Assembly: GCA_964592405.1 (NCBI GenBank)
Contig: CAZQBY010000006.1
Span: 13,007-77,006, forward strand
DNA: 64,000 bases
Source: an uncultured archaeon
Lineage (GTDB): Archaea > Altiarchaeota > Altiarchaeia > JAFGQM01
Direction of reading: 5' to 3'
Shown: positions 1-27,316 of the stretch, in pieces
Layout: every line of letters begins with the position of its first letter
Position numbering within the stretch: the stretch's first letter is position 1
Translations under genes and position numbers: made by a program
Notes under the pieces: generated by a model
The model's database searches: none
The model's input: the letters and a program-made list of their open reading frames with translations, nothing else
What the model was told of the DNA's origin: nothing

Positions 1-3000
1 CAAATCTGGGTGAAAATTCGGCTACCTGCCCGGAGGATTGCAAACCGCCTGAGACATTGAAAACTGTCATCATTGAAATAATGGGGGATGTCAGGGCAAG
101 TCTCGAGGTTCGTCTGGAGGATAGTGACGGCTATCTCATACAGTCCGACAGCGGAACAGCCAGTCAGTTCGTGATGAACGGCGTGCGGGAGGATATTGTA
201 AGTGTTTCAGTGAGGAACCCAATAAACAGCAGAGTCGTCTCATCCGGACCAATAGAGCTGAAGGAAAGGGTTACACGGGTACCAATAGGTCTCCCTCCGG
301 ATTTCTTTGATGTGGAGGAAAATGCCCCTTCCAAGGGGACCCTCAGGGTCGCAGTTAGGGACGCTGTCACTAACCACCCCCTATCTGCAACAGTCACTGT
401 TGTCATTCCTACCGGTTCCTCTTATGTACTTGTAAGAAGCAAGCATGTTGATGGTGTTGGTTATTTTACACTAGATACCGGCAACTGGTATGCCCTTCTG
501 GCGGATCTCTCCGGATACCAACAGTTCAACAATCTTGATAACCCAATCATGCTGGAGCCGGGGGAGGAGCGGGAGTATACGATTTCCATGCACCCACTTG
601 GTATCCCCACTACTTGGCCGCAGGATAATACATCCATACCTCCATTCTTTCCAAATAACATTACCCCAAATAACATCACACCGGAACTGGCAACAATCAA
701 TATCTGTGTGGCTGACCAGAATGGATCCCCCTTGACAGGATTTGTTGAGATGTATGGAGCTACAGGCATCAAAGAATCTGCTCAGGAGCTCTTGTCCGGT
801 TGCACAACCTTTGAGCTATCCTCTGGAAACATGGTAACTTTCTCCACAGCCGGTCTACCTCCAGACTGTCTGGATGTAACATCACAGGCCATACAGACGA
901 GCCCCGGAATCACTAACCTCAATCTGATAGCAAATTGCGATGTTGACTCTCAGGGAAGGGCAAGGGTCAGGATAATATGTGGAAATAATGCACCCCTCAC
1001 CGGAAATGCAACAATAAATGCTTTCTATGCAAGCGGCAATCAGATTCGTGGCACAGGGCCGGCGGGTTCACTTGCACTTGGCACAGATGGTTATACAGAA
1101 TATATAGGTGTGACTTTGGGAGATCCGTTCTACTTCATGATAACCAATCTTCCCGGCTATCCACCATACACTTCTGACGAATTTACAGTATCCGGTTCTA
1201 CTGACAGATCCATAGATATATGTATACCATCCTCTTCTCCTCCTGAAAGCAACATCACATTTCAGGACATATCCTATCCAAATCCTGTTATCGGAGGCTC
1301 TATTTTCAATGTGGAGATACCGCTCATCCTGTATGGCAATACTGACATAACGGACTTTGTCAATATATCCGCAGGCTTTGCCGGAATCTCCTGCCAGATC
1401 AGCAAAAACAATGGATGGTCTGCAAGATGCCTGGCACCATCCAGTCCGGGAGAGTATGATCTTTTCGTCTCCGCCACTTATCAGGGAAGGGAGAAGGTAG
1501 TTGTGAGGCAGATAACAGTCCTTGGCAGAGGAAGTCCAATATTCACCCTCACTCCACATGCAATTCTCAACACCCGGCCACCAATAGATCTGGAGATGGA
1601 CATAACCTTCAATACAACTCCACTTGATTCGCTCACCGATAGCCGTGTTACTGTCATTTATGAGGAGGGCGGCATCATAATCACAGATCAGCTGAGCCTC
1701 TCCGGTGGCAGCGGTCTTTACTACGTCACTATCGACAGTCCGTTTCCGGGGCAGCACCGCGCCGAGATATATCTGAAAAAGATAACTGGTGGCAGAATCT
1801 ATGAACAGAACTTCACAGTCCATTTCACCCTGACGCAAACAGGTACCCGGGTAACATCCGAGGCGTCTATAGATCCTGTGATACTCGCGCCCGCGGATCA
1901 GTTTACGACTGATGTTAGACTATGGTCAAACAGTATTGAAATTCCGGATCTGAACAATCTCTTCCTTATTCTTCAGGAGCAGAGGAGCAGACTGCCCTGG
2001 AACCCAAACACACATACCTACCATGGAATCTTCACGGCTCCGGATTATGAAGGCATCTTTTCTGTGGTCATAGAACTTGGAACCCAGGCCCTCTCCACCA
2101 AAAAAATATATGTTGTTGACACGACAAAAAACAAGGCTACCAGTTGTGATATAGCAAACTGTCAGACTATACCAGAGGTAAGAAAATGCGTCCAAGAATA
2201 CCATCTTGATGGACGATATTCCGAACAGGAAACCATAAGATGTATAGAATCCGGCTTCTTCTCCGACATAGGAACCGAACCAATACATTGCAAATCCCCA
2301 TCTGCCAATCGCGGCGACTGGGATAACAACTGCATGATTAACGCAGAGGGAGGTATTGATGACCTCTTCATAATGAGTGAGCTCCTTCGTAGAATCCCCG
2401 ACCAGGATGAGAGAAATACATACAGGGGCTGTGGCGACATGGACAATGACGGCGATGTGGATGAAGATGACCTGAAGTGCCTCAGGAATGTTGCGGCCCT
2501 TAAGTGGTTTGGTGATGTGGGTGACGGCACCTGCTCTACACCAATGCGCGGGGGCTTCTGCTTTGACATAGAGTCAGGTGTGCCCGGAGACTTTGACAAT
2601 AACAAAAACATAGATTCAGATGATGTGGTCATAATGACAAAGATATTGGATGTAATTTCATCCGGGATAACACCACCTCCTGAACTCCTGGACATAGCTG
2701 ATTTTGACAAAAACGGCCAGATAGACAGAACCGACAGTCAATGCCTTGAAAACATAGCTGGGGCCGGACCGATACCACTTTACTGCTTGGGAGTGTATGA
2801 CTTTGGATGTACGGGCACCAAGGGGGATATCACAAGAAATGGGGAATTGGACAGCATAGACATGATCCTTATGGCTTGGATGGTTGACGGACGGGTTGAT
2901 CCAGCTTCAGTATTTGACTGTGCTGATATAACTGATGATGGGGCTGTTGACGAAAAAGATCTCATGTGCTTATCCGGAATCGTAAATGAAAACACAAATG

Positions 3001-5057
3001 ATGTTGAGGATTACTGCACTCCATGCCAGATACGTATGAATGAATTAGGCAGATACGGCGATGAGATATGCCACGACGGTCTGGACAACGACTGCGACGG
3101 GTATATCGATGAGGCATGCCAGTGTGATGTAAACCAAAAATGCAATCGGAAGTATGACAATGACGGACTGTACAATACAGACGATTTCAAATATTGCCGT
3201 TCCCTGAGCTGGATGCTGGAAGGCGCATGGGAATGGTATTTCCCACAGGTCTACTCAAGATGCACTAGTGATATACAGTGTGAGACAAGAGCCTGCGAGG
3301 GATATGAGCGTATATGCAGCTCGCCTGATGGAACCAAAGGAAAGTGGTATAAGAGGGATGAGCTTCCGAAGGAGAGATGCGGCGACGGCTGGGACAATGA
3401 CTGCGTGGGTGGGGATGCAAGATGTCCGAGCAGCTGCTTCCCGGCTGGAACGCCAGTCACCATGGCTGATGGCTCATCCAAACCAATAGAAGAGGTCAGG
3501 GTTGGTGATATGGTCCTCAGCTATGACCCCACAGCGAAGACCTTTGCAGCAGGCAGGATCCTGGAGGTGGAGTCGCCCATAAGATATCACCTATACACAC
3601 TTATCTTTGAGGATGGAACCCAGCTTCGCCTCACTGGCGAGCATCCACTCTATGTCAAAGGCAAGGGCTGGGCTTCAATAGATCCCGGAGCCACCCATTA
3701 TGAAACCGGTCTGGTCGTACAGAAGCTGAAAGAGGGCGACAGCATATTTAGTAAAGAAAACAGCTGGCTGAAGATAACAAACATAACCTACGAGGAGATT
3801 CCGGAAGGTATTAGGACGTATAACCTCAAGAGGATAAGCGAATACAACAATTTCTTTGCCGGTGGGCTATTGGCTCATAACAAGGGCGGCGGTTGCCTCT
3901 ACACATATTCCATATCCGATGAGGGGCTGATTCTGGACCACCTCGCATATCCATTTTCAATAGTGCCTGCTTGGGAAACATATTCCTATGGAACAATGAC
4001 CCATCTGAAACCAAAGAACGGTCTTCTGAAAATCAGACTTTCCGAGGAGCTTCCCGAAATAACCAACATTAACCATGTAAGGCTCTTTGCAGTTGACCAT
4101 CCACCTGACACAGTTGTAATGCCCGACATAGGGGGCAAGATACACACCCTGTCAGAGCTGCAACCCCCATCATCCTGCATCTGCAGGGATGGAAGCGACT
4201 GTAGGGAGGATCTATTAAAAGAGGATGAAAAGAGCTATATATTCGATCTGGAATCTGCAAAGAGAGAGGACATCCATGATGCCCAAGATGCCATAGTCCT
4301 TGAGTTCCCAAAGCCGGCCTCTGCCGAGATGGCCAAAGTGGTAGTCAAGGGTGAGGAGTCCGGCCTGATAACATTCGTCTGGTGGCAGATACTGGACAGG
4401 GTTGGTGCAAACAACATGCAGGATTTCCTTGCCAGTCTTGGTTCGGGCTCTTTTGAATCCATCCTCTTTGACCAGTTTGCAAACAGGAAGGGCAAGGTCA
4501 ATATTCAGGTCTGGGATGGTCATAATTGGTTGGATGTAGCCTCCGAATATCTGGGCTTCTCCAAATATGGCAAGGGTGGTGAGGTTCTTGTCCCCATATA
4601 CCTGCCACAGCTTGGGGATGTTAAGGACAAGGACAGTCTGAAAATAAGACTGCTGTTCTCAAAAGGAGCATTTGAAATAGATTATGTCGGGATTGACTAC
4701 TCAACTGACGCCCCGGTCATCCTATATGAGCTGCCCATGGTCAGTGCAGAGACCTACGATTTGAGAGATGTCATCAGCTTGTTGCAAAATGATGATAATC
4801 TCTACCTGACTCTCAACAAGGGCGGCTGGGTTGACGTCACATTCTCAAAACCGGTTCCTGAGAACGACCTGCAGAGGTCGTATGTCGTTGCTGTGAAGGG
4901 TTACTACACATATGATATCAAAAGTCAGAGAAATCTTACACCTGAGACGCAGGGCTGGATTATCAGGATGATGCTAGATGAACCCTACCTTATTGACTAT
5001 GTTATGGAGAACTATCCGCAGAAGAAGGAGGCCTTCTTCCGCATTTACAATGGGTAA
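1..5057 (+). CDS. Giant surface protein P1 (5'-truncated by the window): Ig/carboxypeptidase-regulatory-like repeats, three dockerin-like domains, MopE-like Cys/Asp motifs, Hint domain, C-terminal domain of unknown function
   Basis: The frame is open from base 3 (NLGENSATCPEDCKPPETL, same as P2), so the start lies upstream. Six DxDxxGxxDxxD-type loops at about 2308-2980; EICHDGLDNDCDG motif; Hint domain at 3435-3881. Confidence 0.9.
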   Translation, partial: NLGENSATCPEDCKPPETLKTVIIEIMGDVRASLEVRLEDSDGYLIQSDSGTASQFVMNGVREDIVSVSVRNPINSRVVSSGPIELKERVTRVPIGLPPDFFDVEENAPSKGTLRVAVRDAVTNHPLSATVTVVIPTGSSYVLVRSKHVDGVGYFTLDTGNWYALLADLSGYQQFNNLDNPIMLEPGEEREYTISMHPLGIPTTWPQDNTSIPPFFPNNITPNNITPELATINICVADQNGSPLTGFVEMYGATGIKESAQELLSGCTTFELSSGNMVTFSTAGLPPDCLDVTSQAIQTSPGITNLNLIANCDVDSQGRARVRIICGNNAPLTGNATINAFYASGNQIRGTGPAGSLALGTDGYTEYIGVTLGDPFYFMITNLPGYPPYTSDEFTVSGSTDRSIDICIPSSSPPESNITFQDISYPNPVIGGSIFNVEIPLILYGNTDITDFVNISAGFAGISCQISKNNGWSARCLAPSSPGEYDLFVSATYQGREKVVVRQITVLGRGSPIFTLTPHAILNTRPPIDLEMDITFNTTPLDSLTDSRVTVIYEEGGIIITDQLSLSGGSGLYYVTIDSPFPGQHRAEIYLKKITGGRIYEQNFTVHFTLTQTGTRVTSEASIDPVILAPADQFTTDVRLWSNSIEIPDLNNLFLILQEQRSRLPWNPNTHTYHGIFTAPDYEGIFSVVIELGTQALSTKKIYVVDTTKNKATSCDIANCQTIPEVRKCVQEYHLDGRYSEQETIRCIESGFFSDIGTEPIHCKSPSANRGDWDNNCMINAEGGIDDLFIMSELLRRIPDQDERNTYRGCGDMDNDGDVDEDDLKCLRNVAALKWFGDVGDGTCSTPMRGGFCFDIESGVPGDFDNNKNIDSDDVVIMTKILDVISSGITPPPELLDIADFDKNGQIDRTDSQCLENIAGAGPIPLYCLGVYDFGCTGTKGDITRNGELDSIDMILMAWMVDGRVDPASVFDCADITDDGAVDEKDLMCLSGIVNENTNDVEDYCTPCQIRMNELGRYGDEICHDGLDNDCDGYIDEACQCDVNQKCNRKYDNDGLYNTDDFKYCRSLSWMLEGAWEWYFPQVYSRCTSDIQCETRACEGYERICSSPDGTKGKWYKRDELPKERCGDGWDNDCVGGDARCPSSCFPAGTPVTMADGSSKPIEEVRVGDMVLSYDPTAKTFAAGRILEVESPIRYHLYTLIFEDGTQLRLTGEHPLYVKGKGWASIDPGATHYETGLVVQKLKEGDSIFSKENSWLKITNITYEEIPEGIRTYNLKRISEYNNFFAGGLLAHNKGGGCLYTYSISDEGLILDHLAYPFSIVPAWETYSYGTMTHLKPKNGLLKIRLSEELPEITNINHVRLFAVDHPPDTVVMPDIGGKIHTLSELQPPSSCICRDGSDCREDLLKEDEKSYIFDLESAKREDIHDAQDAIVLEFPKPASAEMAKVVVKGEESGLITFVWWQILDRVGANNMQDFLASLGSGSFESILFDQFANRKGKVNIQVWDGHNWLDVASEYLGFSKYGKGGEVLVPIYLPQLGDVKDKDSLKIRLLFSKGAFEIDYVGIDYSTDAPVILYELPMVSAETYDLRDVISLLQNDDNLYLTLNKGGWVDVTFSKPVPENDLQRSYVVAVKGYYTYDIKSQRNLTPETQGWIIRMMLDEPYLIDYVMENYPQKKEAFFRIYNG
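2409..2571 (+). repeat. Near-identical 163-bp patch shared with 7641-7803
   Basis: Six mismatches by manual alignment; flanks are much more diverged. Confidence 0.9.
3435..3881 (+). other. Hint (intein-like, BIL/PT-HINT type) auto-processing domain, 149 aa, no homing endonuclease
   Basis: Block A CFPAGTPV..ADG, block B LTGEHP, block F TYNL..NFFA, block G LAHN followed by Lys rather than C/S/T. Confidence 0.9.
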
Positions 5058-5072
5058 TTAACAATCTATAAT

Positions 5073-7898
5073 ATGTCCTATGACGATTTTTTATGGGATA
5101 TTCTGGAAAGACTGCACCTAGCCGATTTCTTTGATGAGCACAACATCCCACCCATTCTCTTTTTGGTTGTGCTGGTGCTACTTGCCATCCTGATAATATG
5201 GCTCGCCTATGGTTTTGGCGGGGGTGTTGAAGAACCAGAGACCGGGGTCTGTGGCGATGGAATCTGCCAGACAAATCTGGGTGAAAATTCGGCTACCTGC
5301 CCGGAGGATTGCAAACCGCCTGAGACGTTAAAAACTGTTTTGGTTGATATCCTAGATGCAGTTAGGAGTAATATTGACATTATCGCGGAAGATAGCGAGG
5401 GCAACATACTATACTCCAGCAGCGGGACGGGGAACAAGTTCAAGATAACGGATATAACTGCTGACTCAGTCAAGGTAACTGTCAGAAATCCCCTTAACGG
5501 AATGACAGTATCATCTGACTATGTGAAATTGGAGGAAGAGACTACCAATATACCTATAGGGCTCCCACCGCAATTCTTCGATGTTGAATCAGTGGTCCCG
5601 CCGGAGAAGGCCACCCTGCGGATAGTGCTTAAAAACAAGGAAACTGGGGATCCGATCAGCGGGAAGGTCAGCGCAGTTATACCAAATGGCATTTCCTATG
5701 TTCTTGCAGAAGCGAAGAACATCGACGGAACCGGCTACTTTACACTAAACGCAGATCAGGATTATGCCCTCATAGTGGACTCACAGGGTTATAGACAATA
5801 CAATACACTGTCCAGCCCCATACGTCTGAGCGCAAGGATGGAGGAAGAGATCATAATAGAGCTGGAGCCTTTATCGTCCGACATACCATCTGACACAAGT
5901 GCAACAGTCAGTGAAGAAGCTACACTGAGGGTATGTATTCACAACCAGACCGGCGGCCCGGTGCCGGGCTCTGTGGAAGTGTATACGGCTACAAATGTCC
6001 GGCTGGTGACCAGAGAAGTTTCATCAGACGGATGTGCAACTTTTGAACTGACTCCGGGGGATCTGGTTTTCCTCTCCACAACAAATCTTCCGGAAGAGTG
6101 CCTTGATGCACTCTCTGCTCCTGTGCAGATACTACCGGAGGGAAATGAGTTTACACTAAACGTGCAATGCGGAGGTGCATACGGCAGGGTGCGCATGAAG
6201 ATATTGGGGGAGAACGACGAGATTCTTACCAGTGAAGCAACCATAACCGCCTGGTATGCAAGTGGTCAGCAGATAAGCGGCTCCGGTTATGGACACTCTC
6301 TATTGACTCCGCCGGGTTCTGAGTACACTGAGTATGTAGAGGTGGCTGCATCAACACCCTTTAACTTTATGGTAACCGGGCTGGAGGGTTATGCAACCTA
6401 CAGATCACAGAATTATATGGCTGAGCCATTTGAGGACAGGTCCATAGAGCTTCAGCTAACCCGCGAATCACTATCAGAGGATACCATCAGATTTTTAGGG
6501 GTAGTTTATCCAAATCCGACCTTTCCGAACCAGATATTTACTGTCACAATCCCAACAGTCATGTCGGGCAATTCCGACATCACTAATCTTGCAGATGTTG
6601 GGGTCAGTCTGGCTGGAACTGATTGCCATGTAACCAAGAGCCAGTTCTGGATAGCCAGATGCACAGCACCATCACAACCAGGTAGCTATGACCTGATAAT
6701 ATCTGCGAGTTATGGAGGTAAGTATAATACTGATATACGGGAGCTGACTGTTTTGGGCAGAGGCACAGGCCTTTTCACACTAGAACTCATAGGATTGCCG
6801 GATACAACTCCACCGACAACCTTGGAGTTCAATATAACCCTCAACGGCACGCCCCTAGATTCCCTAACTGACAGCAACGTTACGATATTCTATGTTCCGG
6901 GGGATATCATGGTAGCGGACCAGCTGAGCCTTTCTGGAGACAACGGTTTTTACACCCTCACAGCGGATAGTCAGTTCTCTGGCGAGCACCGCGCCGAGAT
7001 ACACCTCATGAAGATAAAACACGGGAAGGTCTATGAGCAGAATTTCACAATCACCTTTATGTTATCCGCTGCTCCTTCGGCGATGGCTGTCCAGGAGCTT
7101 ATTGAGCCACGCATACTGGAGCCCAGGGAGGCGTTCACAGTGGACGTCCGAATACAGGGCGTGGAGGCAGACGTGCCAAATCTGGATAATGTTTACTTTG
7201 TAGTCAAGAACCAGAGAACCAACCTTCCATGGAATCAAAGGCTGCACACCTACCACAGGGATCTTAATGCTCCCGGAGACGAGGGCATCTATCCGGTTGT
7301 CACAGAGCTTGGGGATGTTCCGTTAACTGGAGATAAGAAGATATATGTGGTAGACACAACAAAGCCCAAGTTCCCAACATGTGAGATAACCGGATGTGAG
7401 ACTATCCCGGATGTCAGAAGTTGTGTCTATGAATACAGATATGGGGGGCAGCACAACGAGGAAGAGGTCATAGTGTGCATAGAATCAGGCTGGACTAGTG
7501 AGGGCCTGTATCTCCCGCATTGTATCCTTCCATCTGCCAATCGCGGCGACTGGAATGAGAACTGCAGACTTGATGCAGAGGGACCTGACAGTGATGTTAC
7601 CCTGATGGAGGAATTTCTGAGAAAGATTCCCCATCAGGCTGAGAGAAATACATACAGGGGCTGCGGCGACATGGACAATGACGGTGATGTGGATGAAGAT
7701 GACCTGAAGTGCCTCAGGAATGTTGCATCCCTTAAGTGGTTTGGTGATGTGGGCGACGGCACCTGCTCTAAACCAATGCGCGGGGGCTTCTGCTTTGACA
7801 TAGGTGCAGAGATACCCGGAGACTACAACAGCAACATCAATTTCGATGAGGGCGATCTTGAGATCATGTCGCGCATAATTCATACAATAGAATCATGA
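5073..7898 (+). CDS. Surface protein P2, paralog of P1, N-terminal part of a split gene
   Basis: Acidic leader, TM helix and CGDGIC..CPEDC motif. Colinear with P1 until it stops in the middle of a dockerin (IES*). Confidence 0.85.
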   Translation: MSYDDFLWDILERLHLADFFDEHNIPPILFLVVLVLLAILIIWLAYGFGGGVEEPETGVCGDGICQTNLGENSATCPEDCKPPETLKTVLVDILDAVRSNIDIIAEDSEGNILYSSSGTGNKFKITDITADSVKVTVRNPLNGMTVSSDYVKLEEETTNIPIGLPPQFFDVESVVPPEKATLRIVLKNKETGDPISGKVSAVIPNGISYVLAEAKNIDGTGYFTLNADQDYALIVDSQGYRQYNTLSSPIRLSARMEEEIIIELEPLSSDIPSDTSATVSEEATLRVCIHNQTGGPVPGSVEVYTATNVRLVTREVSSDGCATFELTPGDLVFLSTTNLPEECLDALSAPVQILPEGNEFTLNVQCGGAYGRVRMKILGENDEILTSEATITAWYASGQQISGSGYGHSLLTPPGSEYTEYVEVAASTPFNFMVTGLEGYATYRSQNYMAEPFEDRSIELQLTRESLSEDTIRFLGVVYPNPTFPNQIFTVTIPTVMSGNSDITNLADVGVSLAGTDCHVTKSQFWIARCTAPSQPGSYDLIISASYGGKYNTDIRELTVLGRGTGLFTLELIGLPDTTPPTTLEFNITLNGTPLDSLTDSNVTIFYVPGDIMVADQLSLSGDNGFYTLTADSQFSGEHRAEIHLMKIKHGKVYEQNFTITFMLSAAPSAMAVQELIEPRILEPREAFTVDVRIQGVEADVPNLDNVYFVVKNQRTNLPWNQRLHTYHRDLNAPGDEGIYPVVTELGDVPLTGDKKIYVVDTTKPKFPTCEITGCETIPDVRSCVYEYRYGGQHNEEEVIVCIESGWTSEGLYLPHCILPSANRGDWNENCRLDAEGPDSDVTLMEEFLRKIPHQAERNTYRGCGDMDNDGDVDEDDLKCLRNVASLKWFGDVGDGTCSKPMRGGFCFDIGAEIPGDYNSNINFDEGDLEIMSRIIHTIES

Positions 7899-7955
7899 TT
7901 TTATGTGGATTTTTATGTCAATAGTATAATTTATCTTGAAATAATTTATCCTGAA

Positions 7956-9101
7956 ATGGATACGCCGAAAGCAGTTGAAACAAAAACATGTATTATTGCA
8001 GACACTAAAGACACATGTAAAGGCGATTACAAATTCCTTGCCATGGCCTCTATACTGGTCCTTTTGCTCTATCCATTCAGGGTCCCGGCTGTAAGTGTTT
8101 CAACACCGCCAGAACTCCTGGAGATAGCCGATTTCGATCAGGACGGGAAGATAAACAATGTTGACCATGAATGTCTGGACTACATAGTCGGCACCAGCCG
8201 GATACCCCTGCACTGCCTCAGGATATACAACTTTGGTTGCAGCGGCCTTAGGGGGGATCTGAATCAAAACGGCGAGCTGGATACCATAGATCTCATACTT
8301 GAAAAATGGATAATTGACAACAGGGTTGACTATCATGATGTCTTTGATTGTGCCGACATGACTGCTGACGATACTGTGGACAGCGATGATCTTGCCTGCA
8401 TGGTTGGTATGGTAGAGGGCAACAATGAGGCTATAAAGGCTTATTGCACCCCCTGCCAGCAAAAAGCCGGACAGGCGGGTAGATACGGCGATGAGATATG
8501 CCACGACGGGCTGGACAACGACTGCAACGGACAGATTGACGACAACTGTGTCTGCAATGAGCTTCAGCCATGTGGCAAGCGACTCGACTATGACGGTCTG
8601 CAGAATACGGATGACTTTAAGTACTGCTGGTCCCTGAGCTGGAAGAACAGCGGGGCATGGGGCTGGTACTGGCCTGAGGAGGTTGAAGAGTGCACAATGC
8701 AGATACAGTGTGAGACCAAGGAGTGCGATGGCAGGAGCTGGCGTTGCAGTTCACCCGGCAATGGGCGTGGTATCTGGTACAAAGGGGCGTTGCCCGCTGA
8801 GTCGGACGACCCGGAAGCCAGCCCCCGGACCTGCGAGGACGGCTGGGACAATGATTGTATTGGGGGGGACGAGAGATGCAAGCCGCCAGAGGAGGGAGGT
8901 ATGATGGGCCTCATTATAGTAATCCTAATCATAGCCATAATATTGATATGCGTAGCCACTGCCTGCTTTGGCCTCTTCGGAGGTGGTGCTGCTGCCGGAG
9001 CAGGAGCAGGAGCCAGTGGGGCCGCAATGGATACTGCAACTCTGATGAACAGTGTAATGAGCGTCCCCGGGGAGATGGTGCCTTTCGGTCCAATAGTCTA
9101 A
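7956..9101 (+). CDS. Surface protein P3, C-terminal part of the split paralog: new signal-like N-terminus, dockerin loops, MopE-like motifs, C-terminal TM and Gly/Ala tail
   Basis: Same frame as P2; homology to P1 resumes at about 8094 (STPPELLEIADFDQDG). Start uncertain (GTG 7905, ATG 7956 or ATG 8043). Confidence 0.75.
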   Translation: MDTPKAVETKTCIIADTKDTCKGDYKFLAMASILVLLLYPFRVPAVSVSTPPELLEIADFDQDGKINNVDHECLDYIVGTSRIPLHCLRIYNFGCSGLRGDLNQNGELDTIDLILEKWIIDNRVDYHDVFDCADMTADDTVDSDDLACMVGMVEGNNEAIKAYCTPCQQKAGQAGRYGDEICHDGLDNDCNGQIDDNCVCNELQPCGKRLDYDGLQNTDDFKYCWSLSWKNSGAWGWYWPEEVEECTMQIQCETKECDGRSWRCSSPGNGRGIWYKGALPAESDDPEASPRTCEDGWDNDCIGGDERCKPPEEGGMMGLIIVILIIAIILICVATACFGLFGGGAAAGAGAGASGAAMDTATLMNSVMSVPGEMVPFGPIV

Positions 9102-9174: not shown

Positions 9175-12100
9175 ATGTCCCTAATCAACACCCTGAATGA
9201 CCTCTCATGGGACTTGCTTGATGTCCTCCATCTGGGGGAGTTCTTCGACAGTCATGGCATACCTCCCATCCTGTTCCCGATAATGCTCATAGGCATAGTC
9301 CTGTTGGTGCTCTTCCTCCTGCTGGTGCCTCTTGGGGGGGAGTCTGCCGCTGAATGTGGTGATGGTCTGTGTTCTCCAGGCGAAACCGAGGAGAGTTGTC
9401 CGGATGATTGCGCAGTCTATATACCTCCTCCAGCAGATGAGGAGCAGGAAGAAAAGACAATAAGGGTCTATCTGAGCGGAGCACTGACCTGCAGAACCCT
9501 GAATGTCGTTTTGAAGGATGGGGAGGGTAATGTCATAGACTCCCGGATGGATACAGGCAACCGTGCCGTCACCTTCCAGAACGTAGTAGCAGAGAGGGTC
9601 TCGGTCGAGGCCTCCTCCGATTACAGCACGCAGCCTGCCGTCAGTGCAGGGCCGATAAACACAAAGAATGAGGATGTGTTAAGAGTAAACCTGCCGGATG
9701 ACTACTGCAGTGAAACCACAGATTATGGCAGTATAAGAGTCATAGTGAGGGATTCCCAGACATCACAGCCAATGGGTGCCAACGTTGCCCTGTTTGATTC
9801 CGGCGACACCCTCAGGGGCACAAAATTCATTGATGGGGAGGGCACATTCACTAACCTAGTGGCCAATAATTGGTATTATTTAACTGCAACATATCCCGGT
9901 TATCAGGACTACAATGGAGTATCAAACTCCATATTTGTAGAGAAAAATCAGGAGAAAATCGCTACCATAAACATGGTTCCTGCCGTCTCTCCACCGGATG
10001 CCACAGGAAAACTGGAGGTGTGTGTAACCGGAGATGGCGAGCCCATCGAGCACAGCGGCGAGATAGGCATTTATTCCGTTGACGACAGCCTCATAGCGGT
10101 AGGCAGGTTGTCTGACTGCTCCCTTTTCAGGGGTGAGGCAACCGGTGAGGGATGTTACATATTCACTCTTCCTGCCGGAAGTCAGGTCTATGCCGGGATT
10201 AACAGAGCACCATCCAGCTGTTCGGCAGGGGGGAGAGCGGGCCCAATAATCATTCCCGAGAACGATAAGGTATTTACAACAATTGAGCTCAATTGCTCTC
10301 TTGTGGGTAGCATCAGGGCCGTTGTATACGGTAACAACAGTCAGGTCCTGACGGATCAGTGTACTGTGGAACTCTACCATGAGAATGGGACAAAGATAAC
10401 AACCATGACAATGTCAGATGATGGCGAACACACGGAATATGTTACACTTGGCGCCGGTCTTGAGGTCTATGTATATGCCAAGAATGCCCCCCCAGGTTAT
10501 CTTGAAACACGGTCCGGAGATGTGGATATAGATGAAGACGAAAACAAGACAGTGAGTATCACACTTGACACTCCACCACCCCCGCTTCCAAACCTGACAA
10601 TCATAAATCCACAGGTCTCACCACAGGTATTGCATTCAAATGAAACCTTCATGGTTACTGCAAGTGCTGTCAGGATTTCCGGAACAATGACAACACTTAC
10701 ACCGGATGATGGAGTGGTGGTTTCCTGCGAGAGTAGCTGGGGGGAGACAGTCACAGCCAACTACAGTGGTTTATGGGAGTGTAACCTCACGGCACCCAAT
10801 TCAGTTGGGGAGAAAACCATTGTGCTCAGGGCAACCAAGGCGGATGCCAATGAGGATGTCAGGTCAGTGACAGTGCGTGTCATTAACGACAGCATAGGTG
10901 CCCTTTATATAACCGAGAAATCGCGTAGCCCACTAGCCCCCGTCGTGCTGAGTTTTAATATAACATATCTGCACAACAACACTGAAATAAGGCCTGTGCA
11001 GTCTATATACGAGAGCAATCTTCTTGTCTACTTCAGAAAAGACACTTTCAGGGGGCTGGTAGCTAATCTCACAAATCTCAATGGGGCAAACGGGCTTTTC
11101 ACAACCAGCTTCTTCGTACCGTTTAAGGGAATCTATGATTATGAACTCAGTGTCAAGGCGCTCACAGAAGACAAACTAAGTGTGGGATATCTAAGCGGCA
11201 GGCTCACAATCACGCAGGGGGTTACCAATTCCCTCTCCTGCTCAGTAAGCGAAAATCTGCTCAATCCGGGCGATGCCCTGAATGTTACAGCATCTTTTGC
11301 TCCCCTTAATGGTGTTCCATTGCCGGAGCAGAGGGTTATGGTATCCGTAACCGGAAGGTTTGACAGTTCGACAACTCCCCTTGTGTGGAACTCCTCAGGG
11401 AATGTCTATAAGCAGGAGGTTCTGGCCATGCCTTCTGAGTGCAAGCAGATAGTCAACTGCTCATCGATGGATGATCCAAGCATCTGGAGTAGTACGGAGA
11501 TATATGTGGCTGACAGTAATGCGGCAAATGCAAATCCGGTCGACTGCCATATTACAGATCCCTATTCATGCATGTCCCTCAATGATGTGAGGGATTGTTA
11601 TAAATTTCTCAAGGAGAACCCAAACCTTGTTGACCCGCTTGTTCAGAACATACGGCAATGTGCACGGAACGGTCTGCCATTCTGCAATCAACCAAATTTC
11701 ATTACCTGTGAGGTTGAACCCCCAATCATTGGTCCGGGACAAGTATTCAGGGTCTCTGCCCTGTCCTCCCCCGGCCAGAGCATACAGGCCGATATATCTG
11801 CCGGCCAGGATTCCCTTTCAGGCCCCCTTGTGTGGAACTCATCCGGAGAGGTTTATGAGCAGCAGTTCTTATCCATGCCGTATGAGTGCAAGCAGATAGT
11901 CAACTGTTCCTCTCTTACCGACCCCGGAACATGGGCCACTACCGAGCTTTATGTAGTGGACGCTACAACAGGAAACAAGAATAACTGCCCTGTCTCAAAT
12001 CCAACTCTTTGCAATTCCCTGAGTGCAGTTAGAGACTGCTATAAATATCTTCTGGAAGCTCCCGGGGCTTCTATTGGAGACCTCCAGACCGCACTGGTAT

Positions 12101-13632
12101 GTGCATTCAATGGCCTTCCGTCCTGCAATCAGCCAAATGCCATCACCTGTGAGGTCCAACCCAAAATTGTCCGCCCGGGCGGCAACTTTAATGTTTCTGC
12201 GACCTTTGGTCCGGTGGGCGGCGCCACAATTCCCAACCAGCACCTTCAGGCTACAATAATGGCCGGCCCGGATTCCTCATCCAGCGCTCTAGCTTGGGAT
12301 GCATCAGAGGGCATATACAAGCAACAACTGGTGGCCCTCTCTCCAGAATGCAGGCAGATAGTCAACTGCTCATCTGTGGATGACCCAAGCATCTGGACTA
12401 CTACTGAGCTCTATGTAGTCAATCCGGATACAATAGATGTGAGCGCAGAGTGTCCATCATCGTCATGCAGTTCCCTCACGGAGGTAAGAAACTGCTACAA
12501 GTATCTTATAGACAATAATCTTATGAACAGTCCATCAGACCTATCGACTGCATTGGCCTGCGCACAGGGTGGCTTACAATCCTGTTCCGCCTCCCCACCG
12601 GAGATTTCCCAATGCTATCAGGGACTGAGCCTGAAAGTGCAGACATATCGCAAGGACAGAAGAAAGAACCGAAATGACTGCGGCCGCACAGGACAACTCT
12701 GTGAGGAACATACCAACACTACTGACACCCTTTACTTCAGGGTCATGGGCACCCCGAGCGGCAATACGGTAACACTCAATTATCAGAAGAGAAATGTTAC
12801 CACAGCAGTCCGCAATAATTGGGAGACAATAGAAAGTGGATACCGTATGCTGGATATCCATCTTCCCGGTGGTCGAAACGAACCGATTGCAGACGCCTTG
12901 GGTCCAAGAACAACGCCCATTACCACGCGTGGACTGGAGTTATGGATAGATAGTGCAACAGGGGTTTTGACGGCAAGAGCCTACTGCCCGCTTTCCCAGT
13001 GCGGTGCTCCTGGCAATCTCAATGCAAATGAAGACGATGTGGTCGATATTCAGGACGTAGAAATCATGGCTACAATAATAGATACCCTAGAGATTCTCGG
13101 AGCTCCGCCATATTCTCCGTGGCCCATGTCATGTGTTGATGTAAATGGTGACGGGGTAGTTACAAGACAAGATCTTGACTGCATTAGCGGCTTGGCAAAC
13201 CATTATTATTCCAGCCCAGATGACTGTCCACGTTGCCAGAGAACATCAACTCTGGAGATATGCCACGATGGGGTGGACAACGACTGTGATGGACAGGTTG
13301 ACAGAGACACCTATTCTAGAGGGCATTTCTACAGCTTTACGGGCACTACACTGGCTGACCTCTGTGTTTGCAGCAGCTTGACTCCATGCAGCATGCTTTA
13401 TGATGCAGACGGAATCGAGGGAATATCATCTGAGGAAGATGTCATTCGCTGCTCCTCCATAGATGGGGGCCCCTATACTTGGAAGAGTCCCAATGAATGG
13501 CAGTGCAATTCATCAAACAACGGGGCGAGCCTTCATTGTGGAGGGAACAGCTACTCCTGCTCCGGAGGTACAGGGGTTTGGTTAAAACTGGGCCAGCCAT
13601 CGGGCACATACCCCCCAAATCCCCAAGGCTGA
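9175..13632 (+). CDS. Surface protein P4 (1485 aa): shared leader and TM, Ig-like domains, three internal ~150-aa repeats, dockerin, MopE-like motif
   Basis: Leader NDLSWDLLDVL..HGIPPILF; repeats start at about 11239, 11707 and 12148 (..ECKQIVNCSS..DP..W); DVNGDGVVTRQD; EICHDGVDNDCDG. Confidence 0.88.
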   Translation: MSLINTLNDLSWDLLDVLHLGEFFDSHGIPPILFPIMLIGIVLLVLFLLLVPLGGESAAECGDGLCSPGETEESCPDDCAVYIPPPADEEQEEKTIRVYLSGALTCRTLNVVLKDGEGNVIDSRMDTGNRAVTFQNVVAERVSVEASSDYSTQPAVSAGPINTKNEDVLRVNLPDDYCSETTDYGSIRVIVRDSQTSQPMGANVALFDSGDTLRGTKFIDGEGTFTNLVANNWYYLTATYPGYQDYNGVSNSIFVEKNQEKIATINMVPAVSPPDATGKLEVCVTGDGEPIEHSGEIGIYSVDDSLIAVGRLSDCSLFRGEATGEGCYIFTLPAGSQVYAGINRAPSSCSAGGRAGPIIIPENDKVFTTIELNCSLVGSIRAVVYGNNSQVLTDQCTVELYHENGTKITTMTMSDDGEHTEYVTLGAGLEVYVYAKNAPPGYLETRSGDVDIDEDENKTVSITLDTPPPPLPNLTIINPQVSPQVLHSNETFMVTASAVRISGTMTTLTPDDGVVVSCESSWGETVTANYSGLWECNLTAPNSVGEKTIVLRATKADANEDVRSVTVRVINDSIGALYITEKSRSPLAPVVLSFNITYLHNNTEIRPVQSIYESNLLVYFRKDTFRGLVANLTNLNGANGLFTTSFFVPFKGIYDYELSVKALTEDKLSVGYLSGRLTITQGVTNSLSCSVSENLLNPGDALNVTASFAPLNGVPLPEQRVMVSVTGRFDSSTTPLVWNSSGNVYKQEVLAMPSECKQIVNCSSMDDPSIWSSTEIYVADSNAANANPVDCHITDPYSCMSLNDVRDCYKFLKENPNLVDPLVQNIRQCARNGLPFCNQPNFITCEVEPPIIGPGQVFRVSALSSPGQSIQADISAGQDSLSGPLVWNSSGEVYEQQFLSMPYECKQIVNCSSLTDPGTWATTELYVVDATTGNKNNCPVSNPTLCNSLSAVRDCYKYLLEAPGASIGDLQTALVCAFNGLPSCNQPNAITCEVQPKIVRPGGNFNVSATFGPVGGATIPNQHLQATIMAGPDSSSSALAWDASEGIYKQQLVALSPECRQIVNCSSVDDPSIWTTTELYVVNPDTIDVSAECPSSSCSSLTEVRNCYKYLIDNNLMNSPSDLSTALACAQGGLQSCSASPPEISQCYQGLSLKVQTYRKDRRKNRNDCGRTGQLCEEHTNTTDTLYFRVMGTPSGNTVTLNYQKRNVTTAVRNNWETIESGYRMLDIHLPGGRNEPIADALGPRTTPITTRGLELWIDSATGVLTARAYCPLSQCGAPGNLNANEDDVVDIQDVEIMATIIDTLEILGAPPYSPWPMSCVDVNGDGVVTRQDLDCISGLANHYYSSPDDCPRCQRTSTLEICHDGVDNDCDGQVDRDTYSRGHFYSFTGTTLADLCVCSSLTPCSMLYDADGIEGISSEEDVIRCSSIDGGPYTWKSPNEWQCNSSNNGASLHCGGNSYSCSGGTGVWLKLGQPSGTYPPNPQG

Positions 13633-18631: not shown

Positions 18632-18843
18632 TTGCATCCACCTCTATTTTTAGCTTTTTATTGTCTATAACTAGTGGTATATAACTGTGCGTATTTACGG
18701 TATTGGTAATAGTCTGCAACTTATAGCCTGCAACTAGTTTACCTATACTAGTTTACCTGTAAGTGCGTGGGCTTGGATTTTACCGCTATTTGGGGGTGTT
18801 TTTATACACAACCCCCTTAAATAATCCGCCGCAAGAAAACAAG

Positions 18844-21800
18844 ATGCCTGATGAAAATCCACTCCAGAGGTTCTACTACAGCATCTCTGACAAAAGCTGG
18901 GCATTTGCCGAATGGCTTGAAGAAAAGGGCCTCCCGCTAGCGTCTTTCTGTGATAAATACCACATGCACCCACTCCTGCTGCTCGCTGTAATAGCAGTGG
19001 TTGTCATGGTCCTTATACTGTTGGCAGCCGGGGCTTTGGGTGGTGTTTCCTACGGCACCCTGACAGTCATCGTTACATCACAGGGGCCCTTGGAAGGAGC
19101 CACAGTTTATTACGAGTTCAATGGTCAGGTTGTAGAAAACACCACAGATGCTCTGGGCAGGACAGAAATACGGTTCCCCCGAGGCCCGGAGCTGACAGTC
19201 TATGTCCGGAAGGAGGGTTATAAACAGAACTCACAGACATTCATACTGGAGGAGGAAACCGGTGAGATTTCCATCTCCTTGGAGCGAAAGGTTGGAGATT
19301 TGGTTGTCAATGTTGATGTTGCCGGCGGCCGGAACCTGCCGAGCAATGCCTACATTCTGGTGGAGAGTCCGGGGGAGGTGGCACAGACGAAGGCCATTAG
19401 CAACAACATGGCCGAGTTTGAGGATCTGCCGGCCGGCCTGACTGTTACTGCATATGTGGTCATAGGCAACCAGAGGATACCGCCGGGTGGTGAAAATGTC
19501 GAGATACTGGAGGATACAGCAAAGGAAATAACAATAAGCATTCCTGAAAGTGCCCTAACAGTCAGTCTGGAGGTCAGGGTCAGGGACAGTATGTACCAGA
19601 ATCTAGACAATGTGGATGTTACCCTGTATGACTGGAATACCGGGAGGCCGTTAACTACTATGCAGACCACATACGGAGGCTCTGTTACATTCAATGATAT
19701 AGTTCTGGGAACGAGTGTATATGCTACAGTAAATCCATCAAGTTCACAGTACGGGTCATACAACGGCAAGCTGGAGGGCAACCGTCTGGATGTAACAAGA
19801 GACGGTCTGGTATATGAGGTAGTTCTGCCAATAATCGGACAGGTGCGCGTGTGTGTTTATGACCAGACCGGCACTCCTCTGGGAACAGGTACAATAGTTC
19901 TGAGAAGGGTTGACGGTTCCTCGGAGGCCAGCAGATCTATAAGCGGCGAATGTGAGGAGTTCTCCGGCCTGCCGGAGGGCATAGCAATATATCCAGAAGT
20001 CAACTCACCCGGCTACCTCACGCATGCCGATCCTTCAACTGCCAAGACAATAGACTATTCTACCATAACAGGCTTTGATGTCTTTATGCAGCCCATTAGC
20101 CCAGACCAGCAGGCTACGGTGGTGGTCCACGTGGAGGACTGTGAGGGCAATCCTGTGGACGGGATCAAGGTCAAGATAATAGATGCCTCCACACTCACGG
20201 TCCTGGATGAGGACCGGACGTCCTGCACGGGATCTACCAGTTTTGTTCCCTCCTGTGGAAATGCTGAGACAACAATCGAGATCGGCAGGGACATATATGC
20301 TGTTGCCTTTGATGATAACTATCAACTGGAAAAGTCCGGTGTTGAGACAGTTGGTCAGAATACCGTTCTGGACATAATAACCTGTGAGGTCAGCGGGGAA
20401 AATGTGGGGGCAGTCAAGGTTTGTGCATACAAAGACGGTGATCCGTTCGATGGGGCCGATCTAGAGTTGTATGACACCGGAGGGTTCCTCAGATGGACTG
20501 CAACAACTGACGAGGATGAGGAGGATCCGGACCACTGCTACACCTTCATCAACATACCTGATGGAACGGTAGTCTATGCCCGGGCCATCAATCTGGGCAC
20601 ATCTCCGGAGGTCAGTGGAACCTTGGAGATTGTAGGAGGCCAGACAGGCGAACTGTCCGTTTATGCAGGTTCACCGCCCGTAATCCTTGACGAGGGCGAT
20701 GTCGAAGTCTGTGTCACGGATGCCGAGACAGGGTTTCCCATGACCGCAAACATCACCCTCTATGACCTAATAACACAGCAGCCCATTATAGCTGGTGAAA
20801 CTGCAGGGGGCGGCTGCAGGCTTTTCGAGGGGCTGACTGCCGAGACCAACTCCGGCGGCAGGATCATACCAAGGGAGATATACATAGAGGTCTCAAAGGA
20901 CGGCTATGGAACCTATAACAGTATGGACAGCGGCGTTGTTCTTGAGATGGTCCCGAACGGCCTGCTTACTGTGAATGTCAACCTCTCTGAAGCCTTTGAG
21001 ATATGCGTTCAGGTAAGGGCCAGTGACGACAACCGTGCCATGAGGGCCGACGTAGTCCTCTACTACAACGAGACTGCTGATTATCCGATAGAACGGGTCA
21101 GGACCGATGCAAACGGCGTCGCCAAGTTCTACCAGGCGCAGAAGGATATCTATTACTTCAAGCTGCTGGAGAAGTACACGCTCTACGACCCGAAGGGGGT
21201 CTATGAGCTGGAGAAGGAAGAGGTCAGCGGAGGCAACTGTGGCGTCCTGATGCTTTACGATCTTGGAACCCTCTGCAACCTGGGTCTGGAAATTCTCACA
21301 GGCGGCGACAATCTGAGTGTCATCGCCGGACAGAAGCTGGAGCTGCCTATACGCGTGCTGGAGGATGGCAGGCGCGCTGACACATCCATAACCGACGAGG
21401 GCAAGACTGCGAACAAGTTCCATATACAGCTCATGAGTGGTGATGAGGCCAATCTGACGCTCAAGCTCAACAACAAGTTCCATCCCATGTCAATAGTTTA
21501 TGGCTCGACAAAATACAGTTCGGACCAGGAGATAATCGCCCAGATGATTATAGATGAGGTTGGCAGGTACAGCGGAATTTTCCAGATATCCAAAAATCCC
21601 TACTGTTCAAGACAGGCCCCCTTCAGGCTGAAAGTCTACAAGGAGCAGCTTTTTGTGAGCACGGACAGCATACAATTCAGGCCTCTGGAGGAGAAGAGCA
21701 AGAGCTTCTGCATCTATGTTGTGGATCAAGATGACCAACCTGTTACCGATGCAGGCGTAACCATACAGGTAGATGAGATGGATGGCTGGGGAGCTACTGC

Positions 21801-26038: not shown

Positions 26039-27316
26039 TCAGACCCCGACTCCAAATCCCTCTTCCGTCCTATCTGAAATTTCGCCCACATAGTCCTTGG
26101 CCATCTCCTCAGCCGGATTGAGGCCGTGCCCAAGCACCCACCCCAGCTTGACATAGGCGACCTCCGGCAGCATGTCCTCGGCGTATATCACACCAAGGGC
26201 CTTCATCCTGCGCGCGGGCTCATAGACGTAGGGATTGAGCCTCCCGTAAATGGTCTGCGGGGCGAAGACTACGGCGATGCCGCTCTCAATGGCGCGTTGG
26301 ATGGAATTAGCCCATGCCATCGGAACATGGCCAAGGCCTGTTGCCTCGATGACAATTCCCCTGAACTTTTTGTCCACGTAGTAGTCGATTACCCCCGGAT
26401 CTCCACCCGGATAGGCCTTGACCAGCGCTACCCTGTCCTCGAACTTGGTGTCTGCCACGGTCTTGCCCTCATTGGTCTTGCGATAATCGCTGAGCTTCTC
26501 GATTTTCCCATCGGGCGTGACCCTCATCAGCGGCTTGGCGTTTATCGACTGGAAGGCGTCCCTCCTTGATGTGTGCATCTTCCTGACTTTGACGCCCCTG
26601 TGAGCAACACAGGCCACATCGCTGAGATTTTCATGCATGCAGACGGCCACCTCTCCAAGATCAGATTTTGCCGCTAGATGTGCTGCACAGATTAGATTCA
26701 TGTTTGAGTCGCTGGAACCGCGGTCTGAACTCCTCTGCGCACCGGTGAGGATCACTGGTCCGGACAGGTCTTTCAGCATGAATGATAATGCAGCTGAGGA
26801 GTAGTGCATAGTGTCGGTCCCGTGCATCAGTACGACCCCGCGTGTGCCGGAGTTCAGTGACTTCGCCACCTCTTTGGCCATCTTCGCCCAGTGCGATGAG
26901 TCCATGTTCTCGGAGGCAATGTTGAACAACAGCCGTGCGCTGTTTATGTTGGCTATGTCCTTCAGCTCGGGCACAGTGAAGAATATCTCCTCCGGTGTCA
27001 TGGCCCATTTGACGCCCCCGGTTTTGTAATCCACACGGGATGCAATCGTCCCGCCACACCCAAGAAAATCTATGCTGGGCAACTTGGGATTATTTTTCAC
27101 TTTCCGAACCGGAATTCTATCAAGTTTGGCACTTCTTCTGAGATTTTTGACAGACCGGATTTTGTCCAGCCTGATGCCAATATTGTATCCACTGTCCAGC
27201 TTGAGGACAATATGATCCTCCTCTGCCAGCTCAGGCCGTGGCATGAGGACGCCGGAGTAGACCCTGTCCGCGGTCCTGACCTCCACATAGTCGCCGGGCT
27301 TTGCCCTTATCTCCAT
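26039..27316 (-). CDS. gatD: Glutamyl-tRNA(Gln) amidotransferase subunit D
   Basis: N-terminal KLDSGYNIG domain; GGTIASRVDY, HGTDTMHY, GAQRSSDRGSSD, KMHTSRRDAF. Confidence 0.96.
   Translation of the reverse strand: MEIRAKPGDYVEVRTADRVYSGVLMPRPELAEEDHIVLKLDSGYNIGIRLDKIRSVKNLRRSAKLDRIPVRKVKNNPKLPSIDFLGCGGTIASRVDYKTGGVKWAMTPEEIFFTVPELKDIANINSARLLFNIASENMDSSHWAKMAKEVAKSLNSGTRGVVLMHGTDTMHYSSAALSFMLKDLSGPVILTGAQRSSDRGSSDSNMNLICAAHLAAKSDLGEVAVCMHENLSDVACVAHRGVKVRKMHTSRRDAFQSINAKPLMRVTPDGKIEKLSDYRKTNEGKTVADTKFEDRVALVKAYPGGDPGVIDYYVDKKFRGIVIEATGLGHVPMAWANSIQRAIESGIAVVFAPQTIYGRLNPYVYEPARRMKALGVIYAEDMLPEVAYVKLGWVLGHGLNPAEEMAKDYVGEISDRTEEGFGVGV

Follow-up and report, generated by a model that had tools for sequence, protein, structure and literature searches.

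A candidate gene fission inside a predicted dockerin module of an archaeal surface-protein family

Gene fission is reportedly known in prokaryotes, including archaeal families of fused and split genes, and the pilin of Geobacter is said to have been divided in this way into PilA-N and PilA-C. Such fissions usually fall between domains, and they are harder for secreted proteins, in which the downstream piece loses the export signal. Here we analyse a locus that seems to differ in both respects: two adjacent genes, called P2 and P3, correspond to consecutive parts of one surface protein, and the cut between them would fall inside a dockerin, a module whose calcium ligands are Asp or Asn at loop positions 1, 3, 5 and 12. 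The locus lies in a stretch of 64,000 nt, hereafter the window (contig CAZQBY010000006.1 of GenBank assembly GCA_964592405.1, positions 13,007 to 77,006), from an uncultured archaeon of the Altiarchaeota, in which the unsplit paralog P1 and then P2 and P3 are arranged head to tail on the plus strand (Table 1).

Half-units of comparable calcium-binding folds have been described in two settings. Dockerins with a single repeat can be stable and functional, and stability is also possible for N- and C-terminal halves engineered from classical dockerins (PMC12270676). Calbindin D9k, like other EF-hand pairs, assembles again when its single EF-hand fragments meet, and picomolar affinity has been reported for this in Ca2+; isolated fragments can also homodimerise, the heterodimers of calbindin being strongly favoured over homodimers (PMC7674454). 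Against this background, we consider it probable that P2 and P3 derive from an old, maintained and functional fission of the gene for a giant archaeal surface protein, in which the downstream piece gained an export signal of its own.

The cut and the insert

G000, the genome to which the window belongs, is 87.5% complete, with 22 contigs that add up to 1.13 Mb, and the stretch is present in public DNA runs from hydrothermal-vent metagenomes. P1 carries three tandem dockerin-like modules, followed by a Cys-rich region resembling MopE, a Hint domain (Pfam Hint/AXH/PT-HINT at about residues 1143-1295) and a C-terminal domain, and its protein alignment with P2 and P3 taken together has 606 matches in 1197 aligned positions. 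Before the C-terminal region the proteins differ on a large scale at one place only, where P2/P3 have 66 codons more than P1, between ...HTIES and STPPELL. In the DNA these codons occupy 7896-8093 and correspond to the in-frame insertion of 198 bp that a first-pass annotation had described from the DNA alone, together with an AT-rich tandem duplication, an ATG at 7956 and a hydrophobic stretch within it, and with P2 and P3 lying in one frame separated by a single TGA; every one of these elements proved to be where the annotation had placed it. The TGA (7896-7898) sits within a perfect palindrome of 10 nt, AATCATGATT (7891-7900), and can be taken as an ordinary stop codon because TGA ends three neighbouring genes in the window. 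The record of P3 in the protein collection is the 381-aa form starting at ATG 7956. At its C-terminal end P3 has a hydrophobic segment in the place of the Hint domain of P1, and comparable segments occur in its orthologs in G001 and G002, the other two genomes of the genus.

The annotation had also located the break between the two calcium loops of one dockerin, a reading on which Pfam, AlphaFold2 and structure matches now agree. With the tandem modules numbered by their calcium loops as 0+1, 2+3 and 4+5, the module concerned is the middle one. Pfam Dockerin_1 (PF00404) matches P1 at residues 861-917 with 32.8 bits (cut-off 22.9) over profile positions 1-54 of 57, and the equivalent of the insertion point lies after residue 886. 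In an AlphaFold2 model of the intact 247-residue region of P1, computed with an alignment of 25 paralogs (predicted local distance difference test, pLDDT, 94.7; predicted template modelling score, pTM, 0.87), the break point comes directly after the helix 110-124 and before the helix 131-137. Because structure matches of this whole model all fell on residues 175-246, the third module, and left the split module uncovered, the middle module was modelled alone (75 residues, pLDDT 89.7), and it adopts the three-helix dockerin fold. It matches 2vn6_B from end to end (Z 8.4, root-mean-square deviation 2.6, 64 of 64 residues) and 2vn5_D over 55 of 55 residues (Z 8.2, deviation 1.5), Z values near 8 being middling according to the structure-matching tool; all 24 structure entries listed for the module are dockerins. 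The break lies in its loop between the first helix (19-33) and the second (40-46). Since the middle module aligns end to end with whole dockerins, the modelled position of the cut is between repeats of one dockerin fold, in the short loop that joins its two loop-helix units.

The split copy itself is unmatched by Pfam as one unit: P2 alone matches none of its families, and the match on P3 belongs to the next module, whose equivalent in the P1 model matches the dockerin 2ccl_B (Z 10.3). Both halves nevertheless keep their calcium loops, positions 1 and 12 being invariant in 28 of 28 rows for loop 2 (DYNSNINFDEGD, in P2) and for loop 3 (DFDQDGKINNVD, in P3) alike. In the whole of G000, Dockerin_1 has nine matches.

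The insert is genuine and not an assembly artefact, since a contig of 2674 nt from run X1 spans 7774-8600 and a contig of 151 nt from run X2, a separate study, spans 7928-8078 inside the insert, each with 0 differences. Where the annotation had proposed the mapping of reads as one check, contigs of public runs uphold the junction, with the proviso that X1 is possibly the source sample. Among runs X1 to X4, all kept as contigs, none has a contig joining 7895 to 8094 without the insert; none from X2, X3 and X4 bridges the junction either, the uncovered stretches being uninformative in both directions. The GC content of the insert is 35.9%, against 49.5% in the window, and falls to 24.3% in its first 70 nt; its hydrophobic stretch, FLAMASILVLLLY, reaches a Kyte-Doolittle mean of 2.61 over 13 residues. 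Neither blastn nor tblastn found a second copy or donor in G000 (best foreign E 0.79 and 0.27, respectively), the only full-length blastn match of the insert being itself and the five others being of 14-27 nt with E of at least 0.79; the two best of the weak matches turned out on inspection to be noise. A miniature transposable element was considered and set aside, the insert being single-copy in the 1.13-Mb genome and having no inverted or direct repeats at its ends. A separate observation concerns the coding sequence just before the cut: 7855-7867 (D-L-E-I-M) is 85% identical to 7933-7945 in the 15-mer before the ATG, which may be a sign that the new 5' region stems in part from a local duplication, although so short a match between two copies may be due to chance.

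Does the insert carry the signals that a separate gene would need? In 499 upstream regions of G000, the frequency of TTTWW words rises to a sharp maximum at 31 to 26 nt ahead of the start codon, which suggests mostly leaderless or short-leader transcripts, and the TATA-like consensus derived from the genome is TCTTTTTATA. Scored with a weight matrix built from the same genome's upstream regions, the stretch 5073-9101 has six sites above 7, three of which are in the insert (Table 1). The box at 7928-7937 lies 28 nt before ATG 7956, at the spacing usual in this genome, and its score of 7.06 is equalled or exceeded in 33% of 495 real upstream regions, against 2.4% of 6250 internal in-frame ATGs. 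The box at 7897-7906 lies on the stop codon of P2, and so does its counterpart in G002, whose GC-richer locus has only three sites above 6 in 2300 nt, one of which (score 11.1) is on the P2 stop while another precedes the next gene. Two alternative starts of P3, GTG 7905 and ATG 8043, were rejected, their box scores (-1.30 and -2.87) being no better than those of internal controls. P3 may plausibly be transcribed separately. As for P2, its start lies 15 nt after the stop of P1, and its best box (5.87, 31 nt upstream) is inside the 3' end of P1.

Sec signal peptides have a positive N-terminal part, a hydrophobic core of 10-15 residues and small residues at positions -3 and -1. The leader of P3, described in the annotation as a signal-like peptide that the insert supplies along with a new start, may be such a peptide. 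It is homologous in three species, all with a hydrophobic core (Kyte-Doolittle 13-residue mean 2.6-3.0), which is followed by V-P-A in G000 and G002 and by P-T-R-G in G001. It would probably be cleaved, an uncleaved signal anchor being the other possibility; either type of leader would carry the domain that follows across the membrane, and the downstream piece needed an export signal of its own because the protein is extracellular. A class III (pilin-type) signal peptide, marked by K/R-G before the hydrophobic core, was set aside, this motif being present only in G000.

The split across the family

The family as sampled here comprises eight genomes of the collection, in which a search with P3 returned 29 matches covering the junction. 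Uninterrupted copies account for 26 of them, namely P1 and 25 fetched loci, in each of which the longest open frame occupies at least 95% of the fetched stretch; in the alignment all of these copies have a continuous loop-helix, a G-[IV]-T-P linker and a helix-loop. The three split copies are P3 of the window and one locus each in G001 and G002. Only the latter two matches extend into the leader (from query residues 25 and 22), whereas the others start at residues 42-49. A wider protein search over 5.8 billion clusters gave four proteins at E <=1e-10 (length 209-667), two of which are of P3 type, the window's own and that of G002, and a search for related loci gave two, both unsplit paralogs.

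In G002 (locus L008) the ortholog of P2 ends in ...EIMRRIIENAK and a TGA (1090-1092), in the alignment column where P2 of the window stops too. The P3 ortholog occupies an open reading frame (ORF) at 1082-2200 (372 aa), and its leader comprises a basic stretch, a hydrophobic core and V-P-A, reading ...RIRRRHIFLALLSALALLLSPTSVPA and then VPLDPAPELLEISDFNQDG, the second repeat. The contig of G001 begins within the insert, ...SSRFWLIVPLVALALLLAPVPTRG followed by VTPSPELLSIADFNQDG, and its P3 is complete; the P2 ortholog of this genome lies on another contig, whose end cuts its open frame (922 aa) at query residue 423 of 432. Contigs of G001 and G002 break at paralog boundaries, probably owing to gene conversion tracts. 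The ortholog of P4, the next paralog downstream, comes after P3 in both genomes. The leader cores of the three species align with the pattern FLA..S.L.LLL.P..VPA, and the parts before the cores do not. By alignment, then, the same cut with a homologous leader occurs in two of the two other genomes of the genus, with gene order kept, and because these sister species keep the cut P2 and P3 look like a protein that functions in two pieces, not like the remains of a disrupted gene.

The comparison with G002 also changes the weight of one earlier argument. The annotation had stressed that P2 and P3 share a frame and are separated by a single TGA, which is true of the window; in G002 the ORFs are not in one frame and the insert measures 145 nt, so that the shared frame is incidental.

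For the pair G000 and G002, the proportions of synonymous and nonsynonymous differences (pS and pN) are 0.733 and 0.287 in P3, with 57% amino-acid identity, and 0.755 and 0.311 in the C-terminal part of P2, with 54% identity. Synonymous divergence (dS) by the Nei-Gojobori method is saturated in three of the four ortholog comparisons (pS of at least 0.73). For P3, on which the annotation had called for an estimate of dN/dS, pN is well below pS in this pair. The chance of a frame remaining open over 372-405 codons without selection is at most 3e-6 for each of the three P3 frames, and both halves retain the calcium-loop positions and Cys columns in which 28 aligned rows show no variation. On the sequence evidence both halves are maintained, with open frames and intact calcium ligands despite saturated synonymous sites.

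Gene conversion between P2 and P1 is ongoing. The tract of conversion at 7626-7805 ends about 90 nt before the insert and left the cut unrepaired; a second P1-P2 tract pairs 5274-5348 with 3-78, the tracts overall having 88-97% nucleotide identity against a median of 57%. In a tree of the region after the junction, P3 of G000 and P3 of G002 are paired (Shimodaira-Hasegawa-like approximate likelihood ratio test, SH-aLRT, 93) and adjoin the P1 group. A single origin of the cut is the inference that we favour, because of the identical cut position, the homologous leaders, the kept gene order and the gene conversion with P1.

Proposed pairing of the half-modules and rival explanations

The fission that the annotation had proposed draws support from the conservation of the cut, from P2 and P3 being adjacent ORFs on one strand whose homologs form successive stretches of a single protein, uninterrupted in 26 paralogs, from the intact halves, from the promoter-like boxes and from a model of the complex described below; the anatomy of the genes, the conserved cut and leader, the intact halves and the boxes are matters of observation. 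In the course of events that we infer, P2 would keep the N-terminal membrane anchor and the ectodomain and end right after the first loop-helix, and the DNA of the insert would bring the stop, the TATA-like boxes, the new ATG at 7956 and a hydrophobic leader ending in V-P-A. Because the insert supplies all of these, P3 is proposed to be transcribed separately, made and exported on its own. Once its leader had been removed, P3 would begin a few residues before the second loop-helix, with its C-terminal hydrophobic segment as membrane anchor. The half-dockerins of P2 and P3 would then complement each other outside the cell, probably in a calcium-dependent manner, and rebuild the ancestral module without a peptide bond.

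The annotation had suggested modelling the two half-dockerins together. We combined the last 125 residues of P2 with residues 1-123 of mature P3, using an alignment of 28 rows for each, and the pairing passed its controls: the interaction prediction score from aligned errors (ipSAE) is 0.73, against 0.00 for the best of three controls, the partners have a pLDDT of 87 or higher, and the runs agree in 98% or more of their contacts. The modelled interface sets residues 98-125 of the P2 chain against residues 1-34 of the P3 chain; loop-helix 2 there faces loop-helix 3 just as it does in the intact module. When the tool was calibrated, 116 of 157 solved complexes reached the mark, as did 2 of 215 mismatched pairs, a rough guide given that our own alignments were used here. 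This supports, and does not prove, that the half-dockerins bind each other; complementation is credible because EF-hand pairs re-form from fragments and single-repeat dockerins are stable and functional. That the locus encodes a natural two-chain dockerin, with complementary halves on separately exported and oppositely anchored proteins that join outside the cell in the presence of calcium, is a tentative proposal, to which we give slightly less than even weight.

Several observations weigh against these readings. The modelled halves belong to a fold with many solved structures, and because of this the result of the complex model may reflect likeness rather than binding. A clear net positive charge in the N-terminal part of the leader occurs only in G002, and neither G000 (5 K+R against 5 D+E) nor G001 has one. 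The stop of P2 is not visible in G001, the contig breaking at the junction 9 residues short of the expected position. The ratio omega of about 0.13 is rough, dS between G000 and the others being saturated, and for the pair G002-G001 an omega based on pN/pS amounts to 0.67, in genomes whose GC content at third codon positions (GC3), 0.80 and 0.86, probably lowers pS. In the tree, P3 of G001 lies outside the clade formed by P1 and the P3 of G000 and G002; a tree that keeps the three split copies in one group is worse by 19.25 log-likelihood units (approximately unbiased test, p-AU 0.066), a borderline value at which a single origin is not rejected, for a group that was named after the tree had been seen. 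Finally, the Pfam cohesin family PF00963 was not found in G000 (87.5% complete, E up to 0.01), which leaves room for divergent cohesins or for partners in other organisms.

In the most serious rival explanation the fission is real and maintained and P2 and P3 are functionally independent, their halves acting alone, pairing with themselves or binding another partner. We think this unlikely, though well worth keeping in mind. Natural single-repeat dockerins are functional, two units binding one cohesin (PMC12270676), isolated EF-hand fragments can homodimerise (PMC7674454), and the binding of P2 to P3 is modelled, not measured. On the other side, the complex model reproduces the arrangement of the intact module, EF-hand heterodimers are strongly favoured over homodimers in calbindin (PMC7674454), the two genes are still adjacent in three species, and a search of the genome with the Pfam cohesin family gave no match.

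Much less probable is a single polypeptide produced by readthrough of the TGA or by frameshifting, with the hydrophobic part of the insert as an internal segment. In the window the shared frame with one TGA would permit it, and all 65 codons after the stop are open in only 182 of 20000 shuffles; the 19 codons from the TGA to ATG 7956 are, however, AT-rich, promoter-like and unconserved, and an open frame of that length is unremarkable (3174 of 20000 shuffles, or 16%). Readthrough is not a conserved mechanism, because in G002 the ORFs are in different frames, and the role of TGA as the stop of three neighbouring genes also speaks against it, as does the result that no RNA structure for recoding was found (z -0.96; no Rfam match).

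We regard as highly improbable that the insert is excised at the RNA level, for example as an archaeal bulge-helix-bulge intron, so as to restore the dockerin. Its exact removal does restore the frame in both species, a weak argument that is true by construction of the alignment, but three species conserve the core of the leader at the peptide level and in frame with P3, for which an intron that is spliced out would have no need. The region 7866-8123 folds no better than its shuffles (z -0.96; 33 of 200 fold as well), Rfam gave no match with E up to 1, and no terminal repeats flank the insert; neither this fold nor Rfam gave evidence of a bulge-helix-bulge, a motif for which no dedicated search was run. 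The joined form occurs in no contig, the contigs being of DNA only.

Equally improbable is a decaying pseudogene, broken by the insertion and with P3 unused: the AT-rich insert without a donor found, the lack of a Pfam match in P2 alone and the omega of 0.67 between G002 and G001 would suit it, but the cut predates the split of three species with saturated synonymous sites in which P3 is open throughout, P3 is as conserved as P2 with its calcium ligands and Cys columns kept, and gene conversion with the intact P1 has come close to the insert without removing it.

The wider locus and comparison with known systems

The features of the locus are collected in Table 1.

Table 1. Positions of the genes, modules and signals at the split locus, in window coordinates
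Feature	Position	Strand	Basis and remarks
P1, unsplit paralog	3..5057	+	5' end beyond window; translation, Pfam, alignment to P2+P3
Middle dockerin module of P1, intact	2583..2753	+	Pfam, AlphaFold2, structure matches; equivalent of the break between nt 2660 and 2661
P2, N-terminal piece of split gene, 941 aa	5073..7898	+	ORF, translation; ortholog in G002 stops at identical alignment column
N-terminal hydrophobic segment of P2, residues 25-48	5145..5216	+	Sequence; putative membrane anchor, from hydrophobicity only
Gene-conversion tract with P1 2394-2573	7626..7805	+	Sliding-window codon alignment; 93-97% nt identity against median 57%
Putative first half of split dockerin, P2 C-terminus	7815..7895	+	Ca loop DYNSNINFDEGD and helix; invariant D101, D112; alignments, complex model
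Insert relative to unsplit paralogs, 198 nt	7896..8093	+	DNA/protein alignment to P1; holds stop, AT-rich promoter-like stretch, start, leader
Three TATA-like boxes (score)	7897-7906 (7.3), 7908-7917 (10.5), 7928-7937 (7.1)	+	Weight matrix
Tandem duplication, 15-nt unit ATAATTTATCYTGAA x2	7926..7955	+	Repeat search
P3, C-terminal piece of split gene, 381 aa	7956..9101	+	Translation; orthologs in G002, G001
P3 leader, 45 residues	7956..8090	+	Variable N-terminal part, hydrophobic core 8034-8072, V-P-A; hydropathy, three-species alignment
Putative second half of split dockerin, mature P3 N-terminus	8091..8192	+	Helix, Ca loop DFDQDGKINNVD, helix; invariant D14, D25; alignments, complex model
Third dockerin-like module, intact, in P3	8253..8402	+	Pfam Dockerin_1, P3 residues 100-149, 24.2 bits
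C-terminal hydrophobic segment of P3, residues 316-341	8901..8978	+	Sequence; putative anchor
P4, next paralog downstream	9175..13632	+	Synteny marker; orthologs come after P3 in G002 and G001

Other parts of the window deserve a brief mention. The Hint domain of P1, of the intein/hedgehog autoprocessing type, starts at a Cys and is followed by about 390 residues (3435-5057, residues ~1145-1684), which suggests that this archaeon has self-cleaving surface proteins. P2, P4 and their orthologs have in common, ahead of the N-terminal hydrophobic segment, a conserved stretch of some 28 residues (window 5073-5150 and 9175-9260; L008 2238-2330; L019 1288-1380) that reads W-D-L-L-D-x-L-H-L-x-E/D-F-F-D-x-H-x-I-P-P and may serve this surface-protein family as a signal for sorting or docking. 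Farther downstream, an ORF of 2424 aa (18763-26037) follows SecF-like and other genes, GatD, which marks the organism as an archaeon, is encoded at 26042-27316, and two adjacent, overlapping genes (30898-31833 and 31830-32831), both of which match Meth_synt_1 and Meth_synt_2 of cobalamin-independent methionine synthase, form a pair of half-size MetE-like genes (30898-32831).

Taken as a whole, the locus illustrates how large surface-protein families, rich in paralogs, diversify in archaea with small genomes, by duplication, gene conversion, fission and the exchange of a Hint domain for an anchor. The fission of a secreted protein would here be solved by one short insert that provides a stop, a promoter-like sequence, a start and a leader. 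Should the halves indeed bind each other, they would parallel in nature the laboratory complementation of EF-hand fragments, would place another type of natural half-dockerin beside the group-2 dockerins, and could serve as a small heterodimerisation pair that calcium can switch; they would amount to a naturally evolved heterodimerisation tag for a split protein, possibly one that assembles or regulates a giant surface structure after export. A full-text literature search, whose scope left out most subscription journals, brought up no published case in which two proteins carry the complementary halves of a split dockerin. The elements are known one by one, namely gene fission, dockerins of a single repeat and the complementation of EF-hand fragments; what appears to be new is their combination, with a conserved cut inside a dockerin, complementary halves on proteins that would be separately exported and oppositely anchored, and an insert supplying all the signals.

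Compared with other prokaryotic gene fissions, the locus likewise has adjacent genes on one strand that match parts of one gene, with the split conserved, but here the cut would lie inside a small domain rather than between domains, and the downstream piece gains its export signal from the insert. The group-2 single-repeat dockerins of Ruminococcus flavefaciens are half-dockerins too, of which two units sit side by side and touch (PMC12270676); they are copies of one and the same half, placed on a cohesin in a bacterial cellulosome, whereas the archaeal halves are complementary repeats encoded by adjacent fission genes, on separate proteins with putative membrane anchors. Closest in its chemistry is calbindin D9k, in which, as proposed here, a two-loop calcium-binding domain is cut in its linker and the fragments form a heterodimer favoured by Ca2+ (PMC7674454). 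The difference is that the calbindin pieces are laboratory fragments of a cytosolic protein, whereas the archaeal cut is natural and conserved and would belong to an extracellular module of dockerin type whose halves have been brought together in a model.

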